Shown: piece after piece, positions 6,262-60,957 of the stretch
Layout of the letters: each line of letters starts with the position of its first letter
How positions within the stretch are numbered: the stretch's first letter is position 1
Assembly (NCBI GenBank): GCA_001873565.1
Contig: MNZJ01000012.1
Location: 439 to 64,438, forward strand
DNA: 64,000 nt
Direction: 5' to 3'
Source: Candidatus Peregrinibacteria bacterium CG2_30_44_17
GTDB lineage: Bacteria; Patescibacteriota; Gracilibacteria; UBA1369; UBA12470
Translations under genes and position numbers: made by a program
The notes under the pieces: model-generated
Databases searched by the model: none
Told to the model about the DNA's origin: nothing
What the model saw: the letters and a program-made list of their open reading frames with translations, nothing else

Positions 6262-6294
6262 CCCCTACCCACTATCTCGCGCGAAGCGCTCCAT

Positions 6295-6380
6295 CCCTAA
6301 ATCCTAAATCCTAAATCCTGCCATAAATAAACATTCCATTCACTAATCCCTAAATCCTAAGTCCTAAATCCTAAAAAAAC
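6295..6380 (+). repeat. Two blocks of tandem CCTAAAT heptamers (G-poor leader) immediately upstream of the lexA ATG
   Basis: ccctaaatcctaaatcctaaatcct at 6295-6319, and tccctaaatcctaagtcctaaatcctaaaaaaac at 6347-6380. Confidence 0.85.
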
Positions 6381-7340: not shown

Positions 7341-7416
7341 TGGAGCCGAGGATGGGACTTGAACCCACGACCTACGCGTTACGAGTGCGTTGCTCTACCA
7401 ACTGAGCTACCTCGGC
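7341..7416 (-). tRNA. tRNA-Thr (anticodon CGU), CCA encoded
   Basis: The reverse complement is GCCGAGGTAGCTCAGTTGGTAGAGCAACGCACTCGTAACGCGTAGGTCGTGGGTTCAAGTCCCATCCTCGGCTCCA. It folds as a cloverleaf with a 7-bp acceptor stem, GTTCAAG T-loop and CTCGTAA anticodon loop. Confidence 0.9.
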
Positions 7417-7551
7417 GAGACATACGTACTTTAAACAGCTTGAAAAAAATTCGCAATAGGGAGGCTTTCTCGCTATAATTCCACCCCTGGAGAAACGGAA
7501 GACAAATTCGCCTACACCCTACACCCTAAGTCCTAAATCCTAACCATATCC

Positions 7552-10173
7552 ATGTCCAAGAAACTGACGCCAATGATGGAGCAATATAATGAGATCAAAG
7601 CATCTCATAATGATGCCATACTGTTTTTTAGACTTGGGGATTTTTATGAAATGTTTGGAGCTGATGCAAAAGAGGCCTCGGTCATTCTTGGCATAACGCT
7701 GACGGCGAGAAACAAAGGCGAGCACAGAACACCAATGTGCGGGATACCTTATCACGCAGCAGAAAACTACGTCGCCAAACTGACAAAAGCCGGCAAAAAA
7801 GTAGCGATATGCGAACAAGTGAGCGATCCGAGTTTGCCTGGAATCGTGAAGAGGGAAGTCATCAAAATAATAACGCCCGGAACGACATTCAATGATAGTA
7901 TCCTTGATAAAAAAACCAACAATTTCGTTGCCAGTATTTTCCCTAAAGAGAACTATTTCGGTCTTGCGCTAGCTGACCTTACAACAGGAGAGTTCAAAGT
8001 AACGGAGATTAGCGGATACGGCGATCTCAAGGCGGAACTCACAAGAGTGCGGCCGTCAGAATGTGTAATCAGGCAGGATCTACTCGAGAGAGTCGACTTC
8101 AAAGAGTTCTTAGACTCCTTTGAAGATATGTATGTATTCAAGTTCGAAGACTGGAACGACCCGTACAAAACCTTGCTCGAGCATTTCAGCGTACGCAGTA
8201 TGGATGGATATGGAGTCGAAAGATGGCCTTTTGGAATGCGTGCGGCGGGGATACTGCTAAGTTATTTGAAATCGACTCAGAAGACAGACCTTAGGCATAT
8301 AACAAAAATTTCATCATACAGTACGGAGGAGACGATGCTGCTTGACGAAGCGACAATACAGAATCTCGAGATCATAGCCACTCTAAGGGAAGGGAAAAAA
8401 GACGGATCACTACTCGGCGTAATAGACGACACAATAACCTCAATGGGAGGAAGATTGCTTAAGAAATGGCTGCTTCGTCCACTGCTCAGCAAAGACGAAA
8501 TACAGAAACGTCTCGACAGCGTGGAAGAACTGGTCAAAAAACAGACAATCAAGCGCTCGCTGGAGGGTAGCCTTAAGCAAATTCTTGATTTGGAGAGATT
8601 AGTCGCCAGACTTAGTTGCGAAAGTGGGAACGCCAGAGATCTGATCGCTATCAAAACTTCACTTCAGGTCATCCCTGAGATCAAAAGGGCTCTCAAAGAC
8701 GCGAACTCAAAACTGCTCGTAAGCGCGAGGCAGAATTTGAAAGAGATAAAAAAACTTGTAGACTTAATAGAAACGGCGATACTCGATGAACCGAAAGTCA
8801 CACTCAAAGACGGAGGACTTATTAAAACAGGATTTTTCCGCGAACTCGATGAGCTCAGAAGCATAAGCAGCGAAGGAAAAAGCTTCATAACGGATTTGCA
8901 AAACAAAGAAATAAAACGAACGGGGATATCATCGCTCAAAGTGAGATACAATAGAGTGTTCGGATATTACATTGAGATCAGTAAGACGAATCTGAGTCTT
9001 GTGCCAAGCGACTACATCCGCAAGCAGACACTTGTTAACGCGGAGAGATTCATCACTCCGGAACTCAAGGAGTACGAAGAGAAAGTCTTAACCGCAGAAG
9101 ATAGAATTGTAGAACTCGAGCATAAGCTTTTTCTTGAGATAAAAAGTCAGGTCTTGGAGCATTTGGAAGGGATACAGAGCAACTCACTCATTATTGCGGA
9201 GCTCGATGTTTTGCACTCATTTGCGCAAACAGCGCTAAAGAATCGCTATACAAAACCTCTCATCAACAATAAGCAAAGGCTGGTAATCAAAAACGGACGA
9301 CATCCGGTTGTCGAACAGATGACATTCGGCAGAACATTCATACCCAACAGCACAGATTTGGATAACGAAACAAATCAATTCGTACTGCTTACAGGTCCGA
9401 ACATGAGCGGAAAATCGACCTACCTAAGACAGGTTGCGCTGATCACGCTGCTGGCACACATCGGTTCATACGTTCCCGCAGGGGAGGCTGATATATGCCT
9501 GACAGATAGGATCTTCACGAGAGTGGGAGCATCGGACAATCTGACAAAAGGGCAAAGCACTTTTATGGTGGAAATGCAGGAGACCGCAAACATAATCAAT
9601 AACGCGACACACAGAAGTCTTATCATCCTTGACGAGATAGGTCGTGGTACAAGCACATACGATGGCATGAGTCTTGCATGGTCCATTTGTGAATATGTCC
9701 ACGACAAAATCAAAGCAAAGACACTGTTCGCGACTCACTATCATGAGCTGATTGCGGTGGTTGATAGGCTGGAAAAAGGATCAAATTTCCACGTCACAGC
9801 GAAAGAAGACGCTCAAAAAGGGATAATTTTTCTCTACAAAGTTCTCGAAGGCGGAATAAGCAAAAGTTATGGGATAGAAGTTGGCAAACTCGCCGGCTTA
9901 CCTGTAGAAATCACAGAAAAAGCGATTCAGATTCTCGAAGAACTGGAAGAAGGAGTGTTGGAAAAGAGCATCAAAGAGAGACTCAAGACAGGCAAAACCC
10001 GCGTACCGGAATCGCAAATGGCCCTATTCGACAAAGCAACAAGCACTTACGCCGCTTCCCGCGAACCGGGCAAGCTAACGCATCCAGCCCTTGAAGCTTT
10101 GAAGAAGCTTGATATAAATACTATGACGCCGCTCGAAGCATTGAAAAAACTAAACGAGCTGAAAGACTTATAG
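7552..10173 (+). CDS. mutS: DNA mismatch repair protein MutS
   Basis: MMEQY...FFRLGDFYEMF N-terminus, Walker A GPNMSGKST, and ILDEIGRGTSTYDG...ATHYHEL. Confidence 0.95.
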   Translation: MSKKLTPMMEQYNEIKASHNDAILFFRLGDFYEMFGADAKEASVILGITLTARNKGEHRTPMCGIPYHAAENYVAKLTKAGKKVAICEQVSDPSLPGIVKREVIKIITPGTTFNDSILDKKTNNFVASIFPKENYFGLALADLTTGEFKVTEISGYGDLKAELTRVRPSECVIRQDLLERVDFKEFLDSFEDMYVFKFEDWNDPYKTLLEHFSVRSMDGYGVERWPFGMRAAGILLSYLKSTQKTDLRHITKISSYSTEETMLLDEATIQNLEIIATLREGKKDGSLLGVIDDTITSMGGRLLKKWLLRPLLSKDEIQKRLDSVEELVKKQTIKRSLEGSLKQILDLERLVARLSCESGNARDLIAIKTSLQVIPEIKRALKDANSKLLVSARQNLKEIKKLVDLIETAILDEPKVTLKDGGLIKTGFFRELDELRSISSEGKSFITDLQNKEIKRTGISSLKVRYNRVFGYYIEISKTNLSLVPSDYIRKQTLVNAERFITPELKEYEEKVLTAEDRIVELEHKLFLEIKSQVLEHLEGIQSNSLIIAELDVLHSFAQTALKNRYTKPLINNKQRLVIKNGRHPVVEQMTFGRTFIPNSTDLDNETNQFVLLTGPNMSGKSTYLRQVALITLLAHIGSYVPAGEADICLTDRIFTRVGASDNLTKGQSTFMVEMQETANIINNATHRSLIILDEIGRGTSTYDGMSLAWSICEYVHDKIKAKTLFATHYHELIAVVDRLEKGSNFHVTAKEDAQKGIIFLYKVLEGGISKSYGIEVGKLAGLPVEITEKAIQILEELEEGVLEKSIKERLKTGKTRVPESQMALFDKATSTYAASREPGKLTHPALEALKKLDINTMTPLEALKKLNELKDL

Positions 10174-10323
10174 AAACAAACGTTTCGCGCAGCGAAACTC
10201 CATCCCTACACCCTACACCCTATCCAAAATCAAAAACAAAAATTCCTGGAAGCACTCAACAGACGATACGTATCGGTTATTTTTGATATAGATGGAACGA
10301 TAACAGAGATTGGTGAGCAGGAC

Positions 10324-11097
10324 ATGCCTGTCGCTTTGGCCAAAAAGATGGCGGACTTGAGCCTGAAAATGCCGATAGCCTTCGGGACGGGGCGCATCAT
10401 GGAGCACCTCCAAGGTCATATTGAGCAAATCCTAAGATTCTCAAAAGATCCTGAGACAACAAAAAAGAACTGGTACATCATCGGAGAGAACGGCGGAGCA
10501 GGACATTGGTACAACCCTGATTCTAAGTCTTACGAGGAGTTTTATAGAGTCGATTGGGACAGCAGTTTGATCGATAGGCAAAAGCTCAAGGCTCTTATCT
10601 CGAAAGAGGCTAAGCAGCTAATAGAGTCAATCAGTATAAATCAAACGCAGTTTCTAATTAGACCGTACCGAGAGGGTGTGCCAATTGGGCAAGTCGCCAA
10701 AAACACCGCGAAAATCAAAGAGATCGCAGACACAATCATGAGATCTTACAAAGGGCATAATGAGTTTGAAGTCTTGGATTCCAGTATCGCAGTACATATA
10801 AACCCAAAAACCGCCAACAAAGACCTGGGGGTCCGCATGTATGCAAAGCTGCTTTCCGCGAAGCTGGGGATACAGTCAGGAGAATCTGCAAGAGATATCA
10901 TGGTTATTGGAGATCAAGCAGGGCCGGGCAGGAACGACTACGAGTTCTTAAAAGGAGACATCGGAACGCCATTCACAGTCGGAGATTTGGACCACGTGGC
11001 GGAGTGGCCATTACCTGTTTTTGATGGAGACAATGTTATAAAAGGTCCTGAAGGGACGCTATATCTTATAGAGAAGGCAAAATTCGGCTTGCGCTAA
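10324..11097 (+). CDS. HAD-superfamily (IIB-like) phosphatase; the true N-terminus very likely lies upstream of the first ATG
   Basis: Motif IV-like VIGDQAGPGRNDYEFL lies inside the ORF. The catalytic motif I (VIFDIDGT) is encoded in-frame at 10276-10299, upstream of the annotated ATG, with no ATG/GTG/TTG between the upstream stop (10171) and 10324. Confidence 0.7.
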   Translation: MPVALAKKMADLSLKMPIAFGTGRIMEHLQGHIEQILRFSKDPETTKKNWYIIGENGGAGHWYNPDSKSYEEFYRVDWDSSLIDRQKLKALISKEAKQLIESISINQTQFLIRPYREGVPIGQVAKNTAKIKEIADTIMRSYKGHNEFEVLDSSIAVHINPKTANKDLGVRMYAKLLSAKLGIQSGESARDIMVIGDQAGPGRNDYEFLKGDIGTPFTVGDLDHVAEWPLPVFDGDNVIKGPEGTLYLIEKAKFGLR

Positions 11098-11184: not shown

Positions 11185-11874
11185 ATGACGCAGTCAAATG
11201 AAAATGCTCGATCATACGAGCTTATGCTGGTACTAAAAGCTGACAAAGGCGACGATGCTATCCAGCAGCACGTGGCCGATATCAAGAAACTAATCACCGA
11301 TCTGGATGGTGACGTTTTCTTCGAGGACGTATGGGGTCGTAGAGAGCTTACATACAGAATCAGGAAAGAAGGCGCAGGTTACTACGTTGTACTCGATTTC
11401 AACATTGATGGTAGCAAACTCAAAGAGATCAGTGATCACTTGCGTATAGATCAGATGATCTTGAGGAGCTTGCTTACTAAGACACCTGATGGCTACAAGC
11501 CAACGGCAATTACGGAAGCAGATCTCGAATGGACCAAGAGGATTAAGAAAGATGACGAAACTGAGGAGAAGGAAGAGGAAGCTGAAAAGCCTGTAAAAGA
11601 GAAAGCGGTACGCAAAAAACCAGAAGTAAAAGAAGAAGTAGTAGCATTGGAGCCACGGGCAGAGGAAGAAGAGGTTGTCGAAGAAGCGCCGGAGGCTGAA
11701 GAAGCTGCTCCCGAAGTCAAGGCAGAGGAAGAAGCGCCAGAGGAAGCTCCTGCGAAAGAAAAAAAGAAGGAGAAAAAAGCTCCTAAGGTAGAGGACGAGA
11801 AGAAGACAATGGACGACCTTGATGAGAAGCTCAAGGCGATCATGAATGATACGGATTTGGATATTAGCTTATAG
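11185..11874 (+). CDS. rpsF: 30S ribosomal protein S6 with a roughly 120-aa acidic/lysine-rich C-terminal extension
   Basis: YELMLVLKAD...WGRRELTYRIRKEGAGYYVVLDF forms the core, followed by an EEKEEEAEKP...EEAPAKEKKKEKK tail. Confidence 0.9.
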   Translation: MTQSNENARSYELMLVLKADKGDDAIQQHVADIKKLITDLDGDVFFEDVWGRRELTYRIRKEGAGYYVVLDFNIDGSKLKEISDHLRIDQMILRSLLTKTPDGYKPTAITEADLEWTKRIKKDDETEEKEEEAEKPVKEKAVRKKPEVKEEVVALEPRAEEEEVVEEAPEAEEAAPEVKAEEEAPEEAPAKEKKKEKKAPKVEDEKKTMDDLDEKLKAIMNDTDLDISL

Positions 11875-29938: not shown

Positions 29939-29947
29939 TGGTATAAT
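29939..29947 (+). promoter_or_regulatory. Extended -10 element TGGTATAAT upstream of prsW
   Basis: The 9-mer is identical to that at 49-57. It is preceded by the small hairpin ccaccgaaaagtgg. Confidence 0.4.
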
Positions 29948-30089
29948 TCACAGATGTAGCTGACCCTGTAAACTGTCTTGCGCGAAGCGCTCCATCCATA
30001 CACCCTCATCCCTAAATACTCTGTTCGACACCCATCTCTCAAAAATCATAGTCAGTATTGTACTAGCCGCAGTACCTGCGATAGCATGG

Positions 30090-30902
30090 TTGTACATTTT
30101 CCTAAAAAAGAGAAAAGAGCTGCTTACTACGGTTATGTTGACGTTTGTAGCGGGGATGGTGTCGGTAGCTCCTATAATAATATACAAACTAAGTTGGAAA
30201 TATTTTCCGGAGTTTAATCTCTTCAATTACCTAGAGAGGTTCGACAGTAATCTGCTAGGATTTACAGATATCATGATTCTACCTGTCAGTGTAATATTGA
30301 GCTTCTTGCTTGTAGGTATGATAGAAGAGTACATGAAGCATTTGGCGGTGAAGACAGTCGATGACAATAGGTTCAAAGATATTGATGATGCGATTGAATA
30401 CAGTATCGTCGCGGCGCTAGGGTTCGCATTCATAGAGAATATTATGTATTTTTTCTACATCTGGCAGTATCAGGGGATAGACACGCTCTATATGTCCTTC
30501 ATATTCAGATCGATTTTTTCTACATTTGCGCACGTTCTGTTCTCGGGAATTTACGGCTATTATTATGGCATTGCCCATTTCGCGGAGCCTATTTTCCAAG
30601 AGGAAATACAAGAGAACAGGCATCCTTTTATCAAACTTGTGCACAGAATATTGAATCTAAGATCAGAATCACTCTTTAAGGATGAAAAAACAACGCAAGG
30701 TCTTATGTATGCGATTGTACTGCATGCTATTTTCAACGTGGTACTGGAGATGAACCTAACATTCCTAATAGTTCCATACTTAATTATCGGTTACGTAGCT
30801 CTGACATATCTGTTCTCAAGGAAGAAAAACCACATAAGATACGGAAAAGTTATAGGCAGAGCACAAAACACATTGGATTATGAGGAAAATAGACAAGCCT
30901 AG
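30090..30902 (+). CDS. prsW: PrsW-family intramembrane metalloprotease; the N-terminal TM helix is encoded upstream of the first canonical start
   Basis: EEYMKHLAV, ALGFAFIENIMY, HVLFSGIYGYYYG and HAIFN motifs. The track start at 30090 is a TTG inside the first TM helix, and the in-frame upstream sequence encodes KIIVSIVLAAVPAIAW. Confidence 0.8.
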   Translation: MYIFLKKRKELLTTVMLTFVAGMVSVAPIIIYKLSWKYFPEFNLFNYLERFDSNLLGFTDIMILPVSVILSFLLVGMIEEYMKHLAVKTVDDNRFKDIDDAIEYSIVAALGFAFIENIMYFFYIWQYQGIDTLYMSFIFRSIFSTFAHVLFSGIYGYYYGIAHFAEPIFQEEIQENRHPFIKLVHRILNLRSESLFKDEKTTQGLMYAIVLHAIFNVVLEMNLTFLIVPYLIIGYVALTYLFSRKKNHIRYGKVIGRAQNTLDYEENRQA

Positions 30903-31080
30903 CAGCAGAAATTTGAACCCTGCGAAGGATGACAACGATTACGCTACGGTCCTCACTCAAGGTTCACCGACCGTTAAGCTGACGAAAACAGCGATCTTGG
31001 CTGGACAGAGATCAAATGTGCCGGTTGGAGACACAATGCAAGGTGCCTTAAGTGGAGTAATAGCTGTTGGGCGACCTATA

Positions 31081-31230
31081 GAGCCAAATTGAAATAAAAT
31101 GACATAAAGAGCAATGGCGATTTTGTCATAGGGCGAGGCGTCAAAAACGAGGAATAGCAGCGCTATTTAAGGCTTTTGACAACAAAGCCATATGGCAAAA
31201 GTACCATCTTCTGCTTATGTCATTTTATTT
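31081..31230. mobile_element. About 150-bp palindromic MITE-like element (family A) with roughly 30-bp terminal inverted repeats
   Basis: The left arm is gagccaaattgaaataaaatgacataaagagc. The reverse complement of the right arm is agccaagtcaaaataaaatgacataagcag. A half copy lies at 51421-51490. Confidence 0.55.
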
Positions 31231-32047
31231 TGACTTGGCTTTATCATTTAGTGATAGTACAAGGTCCACAAGTGATATAATACAAGTTAAGGTAACAAGA
31301 TCAGGCATTGTAAGACTGCAGACAAGTACATCGGTCTACGAGCTGAGAATAGAAGATAAACGCGCTGGCAGAGTGAGATCTCTGCAGTATTTAAGGAGGG
31401 GATATCTGGATTATGACGAAACAATGCCGGACGGATTTTATGACGGAGGGCACGGAATGGAATTCGAAATAGACGAAAATGATGCACTAAAGGTACGGTC
31501 GCCACGCGAGGTTATTCTTGTTGACGGCACCAAGGATCAAGGATTGGCGTTCAAACTAGATGCTGCCAGGAAATTCATAGAAAACACGACTGCAGTTGAA
31601 GACAAAATCAAAATGCTGGCGATGTTTGTCAGTAATTCACTTGGCGGTTCTCAAATGGTGCAAGGAAGTGGGCTCAGTATTACGGACATGACGGATCGTG
31701 AAATAGAGTTGCGAAAACAGAACGTGCCGACAGCAGGAGAAGTAGTGATGTTGGGGTATTTAAACTACGGAGTGTGTCGACACAGAGCATTGGCTTTTAA
31801 ATATTTCGCAGATCGACTCGGAATAAGATCCAGGCTCGTACGAGGCAAGCAAGGAGGAGCAGATGGTGGATGGCATATCTGGAATGTCGTAGAGCTCGGA
31901 GGTAAACACTATGTAGTAGATGTTATGCAGCAGCCTTGGAGGTTGATGGAACAAGACAGCAAGGAAGTAGGAGCATATCAAAGAGCATTTAACGAGAGAG
32001 GCGCCAGAGTCCTAGCCGGCATTGGCGGCAGAAGCATTACCAGATAG
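31217..32047 (+). CDS. EDR1/CTR1-N-terminal-like (transglutaminase/papain-fold) domain protein
   Basis: YLDYDETMPDGFYDGG ... GVCRHRALAFKYFADRLGIRSRLVRGKQGG...HIWNVVELGGKHYVVDVMQQP matches my recollection of the plant EDR1/CTR1 N-terminal domain motif (DGFYD ... CRHRALLFKVLAD..G.PCRLVKG ... YLVDLM). The ATG lies inside the family A repeat arm. Confidence 0.6.
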   Translation: MSFYFDLALSFSDSTRSTSDIIQVKVTRSGIVRLQTSTSVYELRIEDKRAGRVRSLQYLRRGYLDYDETMPDGFYDGGHGMEFEIDENDALKVRSPREVILVDGTKDQGLAFKLDAARKFIENTTAVEDKIKMLAMFVSNSLGGSQMVQGSGLSITDMTDREIELRKQNVPTAGEVVMLGYLNYGVCRHRALAFKYFADRLGIRSRLVRGKQGGADGGWHIWNVVELGGKHYVVDVMQQPWRLMEQDSKEVGAYQRAFNERGARVLAGIGGRSITR

Positions 32048-32182
32048 TCCTAAATTGAGATTGCCAAACCAATTTGCCCATGTTAGCATCCATAAGCTAA
32101 CTCCAGATTTTTTGTCGTATACAAAAATCAACTACCAACAACTACTTACTACAAGCTACTGACTACTCACTAATCAATCCCG

Positions 32183-36993: not shown

Positions 36994-38126
36994 ATTCAAC
37001 CTGTTGGAACCTGTAGAATGGGGTTAGTCATTAACCCCAAAAACTATGTCCACACAAAACAGTTTTCTTGCCATCGCTCACAAGAAGAAGCTTCGATGTG
37101 AGAAATTTCTTGATGATATGAGTAGCGTTATTCCTTGGGATAGTTTTCTAGCTCAGATCGAACCTCATTATGAAGAGAAAGAACGTGGAAGAAGCAAGAT
37201 GGACATGAAGATGATGCTACAAATTTACTTCTTGCAACAATGGTTCAACCTGAGTGATCCTGGGGTGGAAGATATGATTTACGACAGAGCATCATTCCAG
37301 AAATTTCTAGGTATTGATTTGTTAGCAGATAGAGTCCCTGACGAAACCACAATCCTCAATTTTCGACATTTACTTGAAGAACATCAGCTACAAGTTAGAT
37401 TCTTTGATATTGTGAATGAGTTACTTGAAGAAAGAGGTCTTATCAAGAAAGATGGAACCATTGTAGATGCAACTATTATTAATGCCCCTTCAAGTACCAA
37501 GAATCAAAAGAAAGAGCGAGACCCAGAAATGAGCAGTACAAAGAAGGGAGGTAATTATTATTTTGGCATGAAGGGGCATATTGGAGTAGATGCGCAAGGA
37601 GGCCTTGTCCATAGTCTTGAAACAAGTACCGCTTCCGTACATGACAAGGACAAAATGGGAGATTTATTACATGGGGAAGAAAACGCTTTATTTGGAGACA
37701 AAGGCTATATTGGTAGAGAGGAAAAAATAGCGGCAAGAGTAGCAGAAGTTTACTGGGGCGTGCTGGACAAGGCTGCAAGGAATAGACCTCTTTCTTCCAG
37801 CCAGAAGAAACGAAACAACAAGATGTCGAAAATAAGGTCTAAAGTGGAGCATCCATTTCAGGTAATCAAATGCCAGTGGAAATACACAAAGGTTAGATAC
37901 AAAGGATTATTCAAAAACAGCATGCAACTTCACACCTTGTTTGCTTTGTGTAATTTGTTCAAGGCTAGGAAGAAACTCATGGCTCTGTCATAGGGATAAC
38001 TGTACCCAAACGGCAAGAAAACGAAGAAAAAGCACCAAAAAATAGGTGCTTACAACAGAGAAAATTATAAAATTGCCCAAATTTACTTACGCTACCGCAT
38101 GAGGTGCTTTTTTCAGAGAGTCCTTA
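36966..38126 (+). mobile_element. IS5-family insertion sequence (about 1161 bp) with 20-bp perfect terminal inverted repeats
   Basis: IRL is taaggactctctgaaaaaag at 36966-36985. The reverse complement of 38107-38126 is identical. It encloses a single InsH-like transposase gene. Confidence 0.85.
37046..37993 (+). CDS. IS5-family DDE transposase (InsH-like)
   Basis: Collinear with E. coli IS5 InsH: IPWDSFLAQIEPHY..., QQWFNLSDPGVEDMIYD, VPDETTILNFRHLLEEHQL, GTIVDATIINAPSSTKNQKKERDPEM, FGMKGHIGVDA, GDKGY, VEHPFQVIKCQWKYTKVRYKGL. Confidence 0.92.
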   Translation: MSTQNSFLAIAHKKKLRCEKFLDDMSSVIPWDSFLAQIEPHYEEKERGRSKMDMKMMLQIYFLQQWFNLSDPGVEDMIYDRASFQKFLGIDLLADRVPDETTILNFRHLLEEHQLQVRFFDIVNELLEERGLIKKDGTIVDATIINAPSSTKNQKKERDPEMSSTKKGGNYYFGMKGHIGVDAQGGLVHSLETSTASVHDKDKMGDLLHGEENALFGDKGYIGREEKIAARVAEVYWGVLDKAARNRPLSSSQKKRNNKMSKIRSKVEHPFQVIKCQWKYTKVRYKGLFKNSMQLHTLFALCNLFKARKKLMALS

Positions 38127-44836: not shown

Positions 44837-44981
44837 GAATATTTAGTTAGTAGTTAGTGGGTAGTAACTGCATGTGGCTAGTAAAATTTTCGGCCCGACT
44901 TGGTCCGTTTGTTTTGATTTCAGAACAAAACTATTATTGCGGAATTTGTTAGCCGTTGCAAGTGGTGCTTTTTTTTAAAAA

Positions 44982-46025: not shown

Positions 46026-46043
46026 GAGTGTAGGGTGTAGGAT

Positions 46044-46421
46044 TTAGTCGACGGATGCGACTGCGTCTATTTCGACTTTTACATCCAATGGGAGTCTGGC
46101 TACCTGCACTGTAGCACGCGCCGGGTAATCTGCCTCAAAAAACGATGCGTAAACTTCGTTGACCGTTTTGAAATCACCCATGTCCTTAAGAAATATCGTT
46201 GTCTTAACTATCTGCCCAAGCCCTGAGCCTGCTGCTTCCAATACAGCTTTGACGTTGTTCATGCACTGGCGAGCCTGCTCGGAGACGTCTTCGCTAACCA
46301 GTTCGCCTGCCGGTGTGTATGGGATTTGTCCCGAACAAAATACGAATCCATTTGCTTTCACCGCTTGCGAATAAGGTCCCACCGCTTGTGGTGCTGCGTC
46401 AGTTTTGACTATTTCTTTCAT
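46044..46421 (-). CDS. ridA: RidA/YjgF-family reactive enamine/imine deaminase
   Basis: APQAVGPYSQAVKANGFVFCSGQIP...TTIFLKDMGDFKTVNEVYASFF...PARATVQVARLPLDVKVEID. Confidence 0.9.
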   Translation of the reverse strand: MKEIVKTDAAPQAVGPYSQAVKANGFVFCSGQIPYTPAGELVSEDVSEQARQCMNNVKAVLEAAGSGLGQIVKTTIFLKDMGDFKTVNEVYASFFEADYPARATVQVARLPLDVKVEIDAVASVD

Positions 46422-48455: not shown

Positions 48456-49463
48456 TTACCAAGGCTTCAATACTCCACTTGAGAAGTCCATATTGCTGTC
48501 CGTGATAACACCGATGTTCTCTGAATATTTCTTAAGTCGCGACAACATATCCGCCGCGCCTTCTTCGTCCATCAAGTATGGATCTCCCCTGTAAGGTTCG
48601 GCTAATTTAATCGGAATAAGCTGATATGTCGGGTTAGACGGATCCGTGAAGCTCAGATATATTCCAAGGCCTTCTTGCGTTCCGGCCGACCAGTATTGAT
48701 CGAATACAAAATTGCCGAGCGAATAGAAAATCATTCCGTCGCCGTAGTTTTCGATGGACTGTATAACATGGGGATGAGTTCCCCAAACCATATCGGCTCC
48801 TGCGTCTACGAAATCATGCGCATGCTGCTGAATAGAACTTGATGGCGTGTTTACATATTCCGTACCCCAATGAATCGCTACTATCGTAAAATCGGTTTGT
48901 TCCGCTATTTCTTTGGTCAGATTTACCGCCGCTTCATAATCCAATGCGGCTTCAACCTCATTGAATCCAAGCCATCCTACTACCTGCCCGTTTATTTCCT
49001 GAATGTATGATGAGAACTCGTTCACCTCGCGCGGGTTGCCAACGTAGCTTAATCCTGCAGCCGCCGTATACGTTCGCGTCTGCTCGTATCCTGTCTCGCC
49101 CTGGTTAAGCATATGATTGTTTGCAAGGCTAACGAATGAGACTCCCTGCGCAGCGAGCAATTCCGCCGTCTCGGGCATAAACCTGAAACACAGTTCGCAA
49201 TAAGACACTTGGTAATCTGTTACAGGACCTTCCAAGTTTACCGCCACAATGTCCGGTTCGCTTGAGTATGTGCTTATTATTTCCGGCAAATTCGTAAATG
49301 GGAAAGTCGGTTCGGTTTCTGCATATCTTGAACGCAAAGTTGCAATGTATCGTCCCAACATTACGTCTCCAAAAAACAGCATTTCTACAGGTTCTTGCGG
49401 TTTAAGTGGCTCTATTGTCCGTATATATGCGATCCTGCCGGCGTGATAGAGTTTGTTCTGCAT
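48456..49463 (-). CDS. capA: CapA/PgsA-family metallophosphoesterase-like protein; a signal-anchor helix is encoded upstream of the first canonical start
   Basis: FFGDVMLGRY, NLEGPVT, SLANNHMLNQG, HWGTEY, GADMVWGTHPHVIQ, YSLGNFVFDQ. In-frame codons 49553-49470 encode KQTAILTKIITTILLIVSNVTGYLIEDN with no ATG/GTG/TTG. Confidence 0.8.
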   Translation of the reverse strand: MQNKLYHAGRIAYIRTIEPLKPQEPVEMLFFGDVMLGRYIATLRSRYAETEPTFPFTNLPEIISTYSSEPDIVAVNLEGPVTDYQVSYCELCFRFMPETAELLAAQGVSFVSLANNHMLNQGETGYEQTRTYTAAAGLSYVGNPREVNEFSSYIQEINGQVVGWLGFNEVEAALDYEAAVNLTKEIAEQTDFTIVAIHWGTEYVNTPSSSIQQHAHDFVDAGADMVWGTHPHVIQSIENYGDGMIFYSLGNFVFDQYWSAGTQEGLGIYLSFTDPSNPTYQLIPIKLAEPYRGDPYLMDEEGAADMLSRLKKYSENIGVITDSNMDFSSGVLKPW

Positions 49464-49564
49464 GAACAAGTTGTCCTCGATTAAGTATCCGGTGACATTA
49501 CTGACTATGAGCAGAATTGTTGTGATGATTTTGGTTAAGATCGCTGTTTGTTTTTAGAGAGTCC

Positions 49565-49987
49565 TTAGTAATGGTATTTTTTGCCGCTCAAGATGGTGCC
49601 GCTTCTATAAAGCTGTTCAAGCAAAAGTATGTAGGCAAGCTGATGGGTAAAAGTTAATTTTGAAAAAGAGAGTCGTAAGTGTGCTTTTGATATTACGTCC
49701 TCTGGAAACCCATGTGGGCCGCCTATAAGGAAAGTTATCGCCCCTTTGCCGAAATCTCTCTGGTCTCTGACTATCTCAGCAAGCTCTTCCGATGAGTACT
49801 GTTTACCCTGAATATCCAGTGCGATTATGTAAGTTTGCGGATCGAGTGACCTTGCCACAGCGTCATCATCTTTCTTCGTTTCGACAGAGATATCCGCAAA
49901 AGCCTGAAGGCGTTTTAAGAATTCTTTCTCGCTTTCCTCATACTCTTTTTTGAGTTTCCCTGTTTTTAGGATTGTTATTTTGAGCAT
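49565..49987 (-). CDS. rlmH: 23S rRNA (pseudouridine1915-N3)-methyltransferase RlmH (SPOUT)
   Basis: ITFLIGGPHGFPEDV...LSFSKLTFTHQLAYILLLEQLYR. Confidence 0.9.
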   Translation of the reverse strand: MLKITILKTGKLKKEYEESEKEFLKRLQAFADISVETKKDDDAVARSLDPQTYIIALDIQGKQYSSEELAEIVRDQRDFGKGAITFLIGGPHGFPEDVISKAHLRLSFSKLTFTHQLAYILLLEQLYRSGTILSGKKYHY

Positions 49988-50041: not shown

Positions 50042-51421
50042 ATGCAACTTCAAAAAGGTCAAACAATAACTACAGAAATTACGAAACTTGCTTTTGGTGG
50101 ACGAGGTATCGGGCAACTTGACGATGGCAGAAAAGTCTTTGTTGAAGGGGCAATACCCGGAGATAAAATCGAATGTACTCTTACAAAAATCAAGAAGAAC
50201 TATGCCGAGGCTGACCTTGTACGGATTGTTGCGCCTGCGAAAAATCGAATCGATGCCAAATGTAAGCATTTTGACCGCTGCGGAGGATGTAAATGGCAGA
50301 TGCTAGAGTATAAAGATCAGCTTAAATACAAAGAAGATCAAGTCCGCGAAGCTCTGGCGCATACCGGAGGCCTTGCCGACAGTGCCGATCTTGTTAAGCC
50401 GATCATCGGCTGTGACTACCCTTGGCTTTATCGTAATAAAATGGAGTTTTCTTTCGGTAATGAGTCGAAAGACGACGCTGAAGTAAGAGTCGGACTGCAC
50501 CCTGCCGGTCGCAGAGTCGATGTCTTTGATGTCGAGGAGTGCTTTATCGGATCTGAGATTGCCGCAGAGATTTTGTTAAGAGTCCGTACTTTTGTTCGCG
50601 ATCACAAATTGTCTTTTTATAATCACAAGACAGATACTGGACTTCTTTCTTCTCTTTTTATCCGTGAAGGTAAGAATACCGGTGAAATTATGATAAATCT
50701 TGTCACTTGCAGCTCGGAGTTCAAACACAAAAAAGAGTTCGTTGAACTTTTTCAAGACCTTCCGGAAGTCACCTCTATTTATTGGACGGCAATCAAGAGA
50801 AAACGCGGCGTACCGACTCAACATTACGAGAATTTGCTTTATGGAAAACCTACTATGGAGGAAGAGCTCAAACGTCCTGATGGCACAAGTCTGAAATTCA
50901 AGATTTCACCTCAATCTTTTTTTCAGCCAAATACAAAACAAGCCGAAGTCTTGTATGCGGAAGTTCTAAAAGCCGCCGAACTCACCGGAGAGCAGAATGT
51001 CTTTGACCTATATTGCGGAACAGGCACAATCGGACTCTTTTGTTCAAATAATGCGAAGATGGTTTATGGTATCGAGCTGAATGAATCCGCTGTCAAAAAT
51101 GCCAAGCAGAACATGATACTCAATGGCATCGAGAATGCATGGTTTAAGGCAGGCAACGTTGATGCCAAGCTATATGACATCCCCGCAGTGCCAGATGTTG
51201 TAATTGTCGATCCTCCAAGATCCGGATTAGGAGAAAAAGTCGTAGAAAAAGTTTGCGGATTTGATCCTAAAAAAATCGTATACGTCTCATGCGACCCTGT
51301 TAATCTCGCGCGCGATATTAAGTTCTTTGCGGAGAGAGGTTACAAATTATCTTATGTGCAGCCGGTGGATATGTTTCCGCATACTTATCACATTGAGAAC
51401 GTTGCGCTTTTGGTCAGGTAG
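50042..51421 (+). CDS. rlmD: 23S rRNA (uracil-5)-methyltransferase RlmD/RumA family (TRAM + Fe-S Cys cluster + SAM MTase)
   Basis: TRAM-like GGRGIGQLDDGRKVFVEGAIPGD, then CKHFDRCGGCKWQ, DLYCGTGTIGL, VDPPRSG. The ATG at 50042 is preferred over the track's TTG at 49988. Confidence 0.88.
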   Translation: MQLQKGQTITTEITKLAFGGRGIGQLDDGRKVFVEGAIPGDKIECTLTKIKKNYAEADLVRIVAPAKNRIDAKCKHFDRCGGCKWQMLEYKDQLKYKEDQVREALAHTGGLADSADLVKPIIGCDYPWLYRNKMEFSFGNESKDDAEVRVGLHPAGRRVDVFDVEECFIGSEIAAEILLRVRTFVRDHKLSFYNHKTDTGLLSSLFIREGKNTGEIMINLVTCSSEFKHKKEFVELFQDLPEVTSIYWTAIKRKRGVPTQHYENLLYGKPTMEEELKRPDGTSLKFKISPQSFFQPNTKQAEVLYAEVLKAAELTGEQNVFDLYCGTGTIGLFCSNNAKMVYGIELNESAVKNAKQNMILNGIENAWFKAGNVDAKLYDIPAVPDVVIVDPPRSGLGEKVVEKVCGFDPKKIVYVSCDPVNLARDIKFFAERGYKLSYVQPVDMFPHTYHIENVALLVR

Positions 51422-51490
51422 AGCCAAGTCAAAATAAAATGACATAAAGAGCGATGGTGATTTTGACATATGGCTTGTCTTGTCAAATCC
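51421..51490. repeat. Half copy of the family A MITE-like element
   Basis: gagccaagtcaaaataaaatgacataaagagcgatggtgattttgacatatggc closely matches the arms at 31081-31230. Confidence 0.55.
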
Positions 51491-60909: not shown

Positions 60910-60957
60910 CCTTGCATACTCTGTTACCTGCTCTCTGTTATCTGTTAACTACTCATC

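Follow-up and report, generated by a model that had tools for sequence, protein, structure and literature searches.

Downstream of mutS, in the 64-kb stretch of DNA analysed here (hereafter the window, with about 43 genes or open reading frames (ORFs) from an uncultivated groundwater population of Candidatus Peregrinibacteria), lies a gene for a haloacid dehalogenase (HAD) phosphatase. The public annotation of this gene (P0001, 'hypothetical protein COW94_04395', Candidatus Peregrinibacteria bacterium CG22_combo...) describes a protein of 257 amino acids that starts at ATG 10324, a position downstream of the codons for the catalytic motif. From sequence comparisons and a structure model, we consider it probable that the gene is complete and functional, that it encodes a C2B-cap phosphatase of 291 amino acids, and that its translation most likely starts at AUC 10222 rather than at AUG 10324. 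Parallel cases, a PrsW-family protease gene and a PGA_cap/CapA-like gene, are found in the same window. The coordinates of all features are collected in Table 1.

The mutS-HAD junction and the encoded phosphatase

The 50 codons that separate the mutS stop from the annotated HAD start (10174-10323) are in frame with both mutS and ATG 10324, and contain neither a stop codon nor an ATG, GTG or TTG. Within them, the codons at 10264-10299 translate as RYVSVIFDIDGT, which includes the HAD motif I FDIDGT, and the stretch ends in ...IQNQKQKFLEALNRRYVSVIFDIDGTITEIGEQD ahead of ATG 10324. An earlier reading of the locus from the sequence alone (the original prediction) had described the upstream position of FDIDGT and the open frame devoid of canonical starts, and our check of the sequence agrees. 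It had also listed ATC 10222, CTG 10246 and ATT 10279 as the near-cognate codons of the stretch; these are present, and the list omitted ATA 10288, ATA 10300 and ATT 10309, which do not matter because they lie inside or after motif I. The product annotated from ATG 10324 begins MPVALAK..., which corresponds to residue 35 of the 291-residue form.

Runs of this length without a start codon are not rare: 7.5% of the in-frame 50-codon windows inside the real genes of the window hold no ATG, GTG or TTG. The significance of the case beyond chance comes from the homology found upstream of ATG 10324, and not from the absence of start codons alone. As for the frame shared by mutS and the HAD gene, it would arise by accident with one-in-three odds, and nothing was found that would give it a function.

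The spacer between the two genes is occupied by a small hairpin and a leader with no G, and the G-free run extends beyond the proposed start to 10247. At Rfam gathering thresholds no known RNA element was detected in the mutS-HAD spacer, the sole match being a tRNA-Thr at 7341-7416; folding of 10160-10340 revealed no structure beyond the hairpin (z = 0.14). No sigma-70-like promoter was found between mutS and the HAD gene, and the single terminator-like call is on the minus strand.

Alignments to the HAD-IIB profiles of NCBIfam begin at residue 35 of the extended ORF (10276) and at profile positions 1-6. AlphaFold2, given 47 sequences and the 291-residue form, returned a model with a predicted local distance difference test (pLDDT) score of 95.6 and a predicted template modelling (pTM) score of 0.91, residues 1-10 being at 95; it comprises a helix at residues 2-12, a first strand at 18-22 that ends in Asp22, and a C2B-type cap. 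With numbering from ATC 10222, D22, D24, G25, T26 and T28 are invariant in all 47 aligned homologues, motif I (D22-I-D24-G-T26) being placed at the end of strand 1. In motif II (T56-G57-R58), R58 is invariant and T56 and G57 occur in at least 90% of the 47 sequences, and motif III (K200) and motif IV (G230-D231...N238-D239, GDx6ND) are present. Foldseek against the PDB retrieved the IMP nucleotidase ISN1, PH1421, phosphomannomutases (PMM) and trehalose-6-phosphate phosphatases (T6PP) with probability 1.0, template modelling (TM) scores of 0.55-0.64 and 14-20% identity, and the model and these matches together bear out a core of Rossmann-like fold into which an alpha/beta cap is inserted after motif II and before motif III.

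Profile scores were low: TIGR01484 reached 30.0 bits against a cut-off of 41.8, all NCBIfam models stayed below their curated cut-offs, and Pfam at E <= 0.01 assigned no family to the HAD protein; some orthologues carry precomputed PF08282 (Hydrolase_3) matches. We regard the protein as a divergent HAD-IIB enzyme, a membership to which motifs and modelled fold point. According to the model, a start at 10324 would lose the helix, the first core strand and the nucleophile. The original prediction had placed HAD motif I within about 15 residues of the N-terminus, which does not hold here: a conserved helix precedes the motif and the nucleophile is residue 22. Predicted peptides that would distinguish the two forms are YVSVIFDIDGTITEIGEQDMPVALAK, which bridges ATG 10324, and FLEALNR, from the upstream stretch.

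Table 1. Features of the window related to proposed near-cognate initiation. The context score is that of a 3-mer log-odds model trained on 39 canonical-start genes.
Feature	Position	Strand	Context score	Content or evidence
mutS	7552..10173	+		complete, 873 aa, domains I-V; TAG stop 10171-10173
Hairpin GTTTCGC-GCA-GCGAAAC	10182..10198	+		directly after mutS stop; no T-run behind it on + strand
G-free leader	10195..10221	+		CTCCATCCCTACACCCT (10198-10214) and 7-nt repeat CCCTACA-CCCTACA-CCCT (10204-10221), repeat abutting ATC
ATC, proposed near-cognate initiation codon of HAD gene	10222..10224	+	8.8 (matched by 0.07% of internal codons)	orthologue alignment, sister lineage, context score
Proposed full coding sequence of HAD (C2B-cap) phosphatase, 291 aa	10222..11097	+		AlphaFold2 model, PDB fold matches, dN/dS
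N-terminal helix, residues 2-12, QNQKQKFLEAL	10225..10257	+		conserved family-wide, including distant homologues and a fusion protein
CTG, rival near-cognate start	10246..10248	+	13.1 (matched by 0 of 15,255 internal codons)	inside conserved helix, 3' of conserved KQKF
ATT	10279	+	-6.2
HAD motif I FDIDGT, nucleophile Asp22 and Asp24	10282..10299	+		profiles, alignment
Annotated ATG	10324..10326	+	-10.8 (below all 39 training genes)	ATA in sister lineage, Ile in orthologues; upstream context below every canonical-start gene compared
Extended -10-like box TGGTATAAT	29939-29947; L033 about 2963-2971; L034			upstream of PrsW gene in three genomes, context aaaagtggtataatt.ac.gat
PrsW leader	29980..30020	+		hairpin GCGCGAAGCGC, CTCCATCCATACACCCT (29990-30006), then 7-nt units up to CTG
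PrsW-family protease, proposed CTG start	30021..30902	+		CTG at orthologues' ATG (MFDTH...)
PGA_cap/CapA-like gene, proposed ATC start (49541-49539)	48456..49541	-		ATC at orthologue's Met
G-poor leaders of 7-nt units	6289-6380; 7511-7551; 10198-10221; 29990-30020; 32153-32182; 44837-44866 (-); 46026-46055 (-); 60928-60957

Choice of the HAD start codon

The gene order lexA-mutS-HAD-(PDT)-rpsF-ssb is conserved in orthologue loci, and the helix before motif I (K/R-x-F-x-x-A-L-x-x-x-Y; KF-LEAL-R-Y) is conserved in close and distant homologues alike. The most informative orthologue (L013) reads ATG CAA AAT AGA AAA CAA AAA TTC (MQNRKQKF) where the window reads ATC CAA AAT CAA AAA CAA AAA TTC from 10222; the two align codon for codon, so that ATC 10222 occupies precisely the place of the ATG in this orthologue. 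Other orthologues start at the aligned position (ATG, L012), two codons upstream (ATG, L001), or one codon downstream of the ATC column and directly behind an in-frame stop (TTG, L002). A canonical start lies 5-25 codons ahead of motif I in every homologue examined, L032 and L015 being possible exceptions, and this is also true of 16 of 16 more distant loci among the matches listed. Contig scans for relatives added at least 15 mostly distant loci and one new orthologue, which serve as controls, all of them having canonical starts, but do not date the change from ATG to ATC; an all-against-all BLASTP of stop-to-stop frames across loci was set aside, as it gave false signals from antisense shadow ORFs and near-identical leaders.

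In three orthologue loci (L001, L013 and L031) the HAD ATG resides within the last codons of mutS, with an overlap of 20-34 nt. The window counterpart of this old overlapping ATG is an ACG whose reading frame closes two codons later, and a 48-nt spacer parts the two genes. An orthologue with 55% identity (L015, 53-160) has 34 open codons and no canonical start upstream of its called ATG (MFDIDGT); there, ATC AAA ACA AAA TTC comes right behind a CTACAC/CTAACC repeat leader, and nine helix codons are missing. AUC initiation may have arisen independently in this gene; alternatively, its start may just be the ATG before FDIDGT. In an Omnitrophota metagenome-assembled genome (L028, 1-3837), the HAD domain, with a helix KLAEALARKY before FDIDGT, sits at the C-terminal end of a longer open frame (more than 1000 codons) that encodes other domains as well; the partner in this fusion might be a clue to what the HAD enzyme acts on or to its pathway.

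The mutS-HAD junction is identical in eight independent assemblies, from different samples and made with MEGAHIT, SPAdes or by JGI. Over 3.8 kb, seven of them show no difference from the window; the remaining one departs from it only by five single-nucleotide polymorphisms, all in rpsF, so that the population is effectively clonal. Because it is too clonal for an analysis of within-population polymorphism, selection was examined with a sister lineage of 93% amino acid identity (contig L032, protein P0049, from another study), taken from the 90% cluster of the annotated protein and aligned base by base. In this lineage mutS ends in TAA TAA at the site of the window's TAG, the stem of the post-mutS hairpin is kept with its loop changed from GCA to ATA, and the 24-nt leader is identical to that of the window. 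Both ATC and CTG 10246 are kept, with an in-frame 3-nt indel after the ATC (IQNQKQKF in the window, INNPQKQKF in the sister lineage). The codon at ATT 10279 is ATC and that at ATG 10324 is ATA, and the first canonical starts are even further downstream. Thus, both lineages are devoid of canonical starts ahead of motif I, and conservation does not extend to the annotated ATG.

In the comparison of the window with its sister lineage, the HAD gene read from ATC has a ratio of nonsynonymous to synonymous substitution rates (dN/dS) of 0.217 (30.5 synonymous differences, Sd, and 26.5 nonsynonymous differences, Nd; binomial P = 2.6e-7 against neutrality). For comparison, dN/dS is 0.175 for rpsF and 0.137 for ssb, and dS of neighbouring genes ranges from 0.17 to 0.33.

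At the HAD gene, homology upstream of the annotated start is thus found together with a codon at the homologous position, a genome-typical context and maintenance in relatives. The original prediction had left the choice between AUU, AUC and CUG as start codons, with reinitiation behind mutS as a further route; the position of the orthologue ATG, the upstream context and the conservation in the sister lineage narrow this to AUC 10222, whose actual use, and the efficiency of that use, are matters of inference. An ancestral canonical start, ATG in the orthologues, would have become ATC before the split from the sister lineage, and both lineages would have retained it. Most likely, a 30S subunit, or a terminating 70S ribosome, would be positioned by the G-free leader, which is unstructured in the minimum free energy fold, and AUC 10222 would then be read by the initiator tRNA as Met. 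In E. coli, an AUC-initiated protein does carry an N-terminal Met (Hecht et al., bioRxiv 10.1101/063800). The HAD gene is probably co-transcribed with mutS, since no promoter-like site lies between them and the orthologues overlap, and ribosomes terminating 48 nt upstream may contribute to initiation.

Several points weigh against a start at AUC 10222. The lack of a promoter-like site near the junction is one. The output of AUC in E. coli is about 1-2% of the AUG level (bioRxiv 10.1101/063800), and HAD expression would be low unless the lineage discriminates start codons less. Moreover, within the gene, conservation between the lineages is lowest in the eight codons from ATC to CTG 10246 (three substitutions and the 3-nt indel), and CTG 10246 itself is preceded by 30 nt that are G-free and A-rich and obtains the top context score.

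Among the alternatives, the one that survives best, while still unlikely in our view, is that the HAD gene is translated mainly by ribosomes that terminate at the mutS stop and then reinitiate, by termination-reinitiation or 70S scanning, a near-cognate codon being tolerated without fresh start selection. The missing promoter-like site and the absence of a T-run behind the hairpin on the plus strand are compatible with it; so are the overlaps of L001, L013 and L031, a typical coupled layout, and the ATC of the CapA-like gene, just 23 nt past the stop of its upstream gene. Against it, a distance of 48 nt that includes a stable hairpin lies between the mutS stop and ATC, and the PrsW CTG, which has a conserved TGGTATAAT box to itself and follows a leader of some 70 nt, is uncoupled; because of PrsW, coupling is not required for near-cognate starts. 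The restart codon would in any case still be ATC 10222, which makes reinitiation a refinement of a start at AUC rather than its replacement.

Rather less likely is initiation at CUG 10246, which would give (M)EALNRRYVSVIFDIDGT... and leave 10222-10245 as an untranslated leader. CUG is a near-cognate start in NCBI table 11, and its context, its retention in the sister lineage and the variability of the codons before it all speak in its favour. However, the KQKF directly upstream fits the basic-basic-x-F pattern of the family (RQKxxF, RKKKF, KHKLF), the model places the codon in the middle of a confidently predicted helix, no orthologue starts in that column (the TTA, CAA or CTG found there encode an internal Leu or Gln), and the L032 indel between ATC and CTG leaves the reading frame intact. 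Positional homology, the conserved KQKF upstream, the helix model and the in-frame indel are the reasons why AUC 10222 is favoured over CUG 10246. In the calls P0003, P0004 and P0006, the Met of 'MFDIDGT' falls in the column of ATT 10279; this codon was rejected as a start because these calls are themselves truncated (an upstream TTG or ATG precedes the conserved helix) and because of its low context score.

Loss of the start codon, which would leave a pseudogene or only an inactive truncated product from ATG 10324, is improbable. No canonical start precedes motif I, the public annotation does use ATG 10324, and a clonal-looking population would favour the fixation of slightly harmful mutations. 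Nevertheless, the two ATC-carrying lineages differ by a dN/dS so far from neutrality that a gene dead since before their split is excluded, the 291 codons hold no frameshift or stop, and all family-invariant residues are retained. A product from ATG 10324 would be without the nucleophile and the first core strand, the codon is ATA in the sister lineage, and its context is the least start-like of the window genes. The decaying pseudogene that the original prediction had named as a possible refutation is therefore not supported, and neither is a start at ATG 10324.

Two last explanations have next to no probability. Readthrough of the mutS TAG into a MutS-HAD fusion, which the common frame without a stop from 10174 to 11095 would permit and which the original prediction already thought much less likely, is not supported: the sister lineage has two consecutive stops, the 16 post-stop codons are hairpin and leader and are not conserved as protein in orthologues, orthologue spacers hold in-frame stops or have the HAD gene in another frame, and mutS reaches its usual end with its five domains. 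A sequencing or assembly error that deleted a canonical start, which the original prediction took to follow if orthologues had a canonical start upstream, is hardly credible either: orthologues do carry such starts, yet eight contigs from various samples and assemblers and a distinct lineage from another study share the same ATC, and the sequence from the mutS stop to motif I holds, in all frames, no ATG, GTG or TTG that one indel could put in frame.

Near-cognate candidates and leaders elsewhere in the window

In the PrsW-family protease gene, the DNA of an orthologue (L033) reads ATG TTC GAT ACT CAT where the window reads CTG TTC GAC ACC CAT at 30021. The first canonical start, TTG 30090, is inside transmembrane helix 1, and the public call of 255 amino acids from ATG 30135 removes this helix. 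The sister lineage keeps the CTG behind a leader of different 7-nt units, identity between the lineages beginning at the CTG, and dN/dS is 0.074. Because the TGGTATAAT box lies about 70 nt upstream, the 7-nt repeats of the PrsW leader are placed in the 5' untranslated region; sequence motifs of this kind suggest sigma-70-type promoters with leaders of about 30-70 nt. A 17-mer, CTCCATCCNTACACCCT, is common to the PrsW CTG leader and the HAD ATC leader.

The CapA-like gene has an N-terminal membrane anchor, ILTKIITTILLIVS, upstream of its first canonical start (TTG 49469), and the public call of 335 amino acids from ATG 49463 removes most of it. Because phmmer pairs residue 2 of the orthologue P0172 (63% identity, MLLKVLITILILLI...) with query residue 6, the Met of P0172 falls on ATC 49541. 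The sister lineage has ATT at the start codon and an in-frame TAA four codons upstream; sequence upstream of the start has diverged, changes downstream are mostly synonymous, and dN/dS is 0.060. When the N-terminal extensions of the three affected genes are pooled, Sd is 8, Nd is 6 and pN/pS is 0.22 (P = 0.006). The three candidate starts (AUC, CUG and AUC/AUU) are thus near-cognate in both lineages, and the genes they belong to are all under purifying selection. In each case the leader before the codon is devoid of G, and in two of the three it consists of 7-nt repeats.

Near-cognate starts would thereby be used by 3 of about 43 genes (7%), and a context-score screen of 43 ORFs revealed no candidate beyond HAD, PrsW and CapA-like. 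In model genomes, annotated starts are 81.8 + 13.8 + 4.35% ATG, GTG and TTG, leaving about 0.05% (Hecht et al., bioRxiv 10.1101/063800). If 0.05% were the true rate, the probability of three such genes among 43 would be about 1.5e-6; the rate is probably too low, because annotation pipelines rarely call near-cognate starts. The ORF at 31217, with 38 open codons upstream, was considered as a near-cognate candidate and rejected, the gene being split by a small insertion instead. This insertion (31079-31241; 163 nt) has 30-nt terminal inverted repeats that are 87% complementary, resembles a miniature inverted-repeat transposable element, and divides an EDR1/CTR1/ARMC3-like peptidase gene into 30880-31092 and 31217-32047; in the sister lineage (L035, 893-1897) the gene is one intact ORF of 334 amino acids. 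A partial copy of the insertion is found at 51419-51476, with a related 52-nt stretch at 51419-51470 that is 88% identical.

The leaders of the window depart from the usual bacterial pattern. A Shine-Dalgarno (SD) motif was sought upstream of about 43 window ORFs and none was found. G content is 13% over the 30 nt upstream of starts against 22% window-wide, and the 25 nt before the start are entirely free of G in 5 of 42 genes, against 0.35% of all 25-mers. Positions -25 to -1 contain 0 G at ATC 10222 and 9 at ATG 10324, a count above those of all 42 genes. Many leaders consist of tandem 7-nt units (CCTAAAT/CCTAAGT/CCTACAC/CTAACTA/CTGTTAT; CTAnnnC) running up to the start codon. Period-7 matches reach nine in ten or more in 5 of 42 upstream regions, compared with 0.26% of random 40-mers. 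The leaders of mutS (7511-7528) and of the HAD ATC (10204-10222) have CCTACACCCTACACCCTA in common. Further upstream of mutS, TTCGCA-N18-TATAAT is present at 7451-7479.

Some of these leaders belong to a repeated intergenic module, found at 6279-6296 and 29980-29997 and in a related form at 10182-10205, in which a small GC hairpin is followed by CTCCATCC and then by 7-nt repeats. The hairpin of the module is GCGCGAAGCGC, or GTTTCGCGCAGCGAAAC behind mutS, and GCGCGAAGCGCTCCATCC occurs in at least two copies in the window.

According to PMC10783764 and its supplement, 16S rRNA 3' ends of other Peregrinibacteria are GAACACTTCCTTA or GAACATTCCCTTA, with no CCUCC anti-SD core, and 7% of the genes of C. 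Peribacter riflensis have an SD motif. The accessible text of PMC10783764 and PMC9297842 contains no mention of near-cognate starts in bacteria of the candidate phyla radiation (CPR), and a literature search on CPR and Peregrinibacteria found neither such starts nor 7-nt-repeat leaders described. As for initiation genes, the window has no infC among its Pfam-annotated ORFs and no 16S rRNA gene by Rfam. Pfam on 20 ORFs identified thrS, lexA, GNAT, DAHP synthase, an RNR fragment, recF-like, ABC-F and an insertion sequence (IS) transposase, and a separate Pfam search identified hisS.

Other features of the window include a bS6 protein (11185-11874) of 229 amino acids, with a C-terminal extension of about 130 residues rich in Glu, Lys and Ala, in line with the enlarged bS6 of CPR bacteria described in PMC9297842, and an IS-type DDE transposase gene (DDE_Tnp_1 + DUF772) at 37046-37993. 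At 49987/49988, a minus-strand SPOUT methyltransferase ORF of 140 amino acids starting at 49987 abuts, with no spacer, a plus-strand ORF of 477 amino acids listed from TTG 49988; the latter probably starts further in, at GTG 50003 or ATG 50042.

Implications and comparison with known systems

The phenomenon at the HAD gene, a near-cognate start with a truncated annotation, is known in kind, and the gene is a new, well-supported example of it. The wider pattern would be the more interesting lead: sequence comparison suggests that this 64-kb piece of a CPR genome without SD sites contains three near-cognate starts that have been conserved. We put forward tentatively, as an idea more likely wrong than right, that the lineage formed by the window population and its sister tolerates such starts far more than model bacteria, that 7-nt leaders recruit ribosomes in place of SD/anti-SD pairing, and that start checking by initiation factor 3 (IF3), the initiator tRNA or the 16S P-site is relaxed. 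Relaxed start-codon proofreading and the fixation by drift, in a clonal population, of slightly harmful changes from ATG to near-cognate codons are both offered here as explanations, and we prefer neither.

As a practical matter, the public record cuts 34 residues, including the catalytic Asp, from the HAD enzyme. Gene callers limited to ATG, GTG and TTG will repeat such truncations in related genomes, and would do so systematically if start selection is relaxed there. Natural evidence that AUC can work as a start codon is rare, and a near-cognate start retained across a lineage split, in a gene subject to purifying selection, provides it. The three cases also offer a way to ask how starts are chosen without SD pairing, in a bacterium that has no SD sites and, judging by its relatives, no anti-SD core, and they allow a test of relaxed start-codon proofreading in CPR bacteria. 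If only drift in a small clonal population is at work, they would illustrate start-codon erosion in reduced genomes.

As a protein, the HAD enzyme has in common with solved IIB enzymes (PH1421, 1wr8; phosphomannomutases, 4bnd and 2fue; ISN1, 6rn1; T6P phosphatase, 5gvx) the fold, DxDGT, a TGR motif II, Lys200 and GDx6ND; unlike these structures, it has an extra conserved N-terminal helix before strand 1.

Near-cognate bacterial starts in NCBI translation table 11 are AUU, AUC, AUA and CUG, examples being the AUU of E. coli infC and pcnB. Like these and the starts studied by Hecht et al., the candidates of the window are single-base variants of AUG located at the canonical start of relatives, with conserved coding sequence directly after. 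They differ in that no SD site fixes the ribosome over the codon, and, in contrast to E. coli infC, no autoregulatory logic is evident at the HAD gene. The frequency also differs, with about 0.05% of such starts in model genomes and at least 3 of about 43 genes in the 64 kb examined here. With respect to overlapping, translationally coupled gene pairs, L001, L013 and L031 have the HAD ATG in the last mutS codons, whereas in the window the two genes are separated by 48 inserted nt that hold a hairpin and a repeat leader. Finally, SD-independent initiation without a functional anti-SD is described for Flavobacteriia and some CPR bacteria in PMC10783764 and PMC9297842. The window is likewise SD-less, with upstream regions that are G-poor and A-rich; compared with the systems described there, its leaders are distinguished by the tandem 7-nt units that often run up to the start codon.

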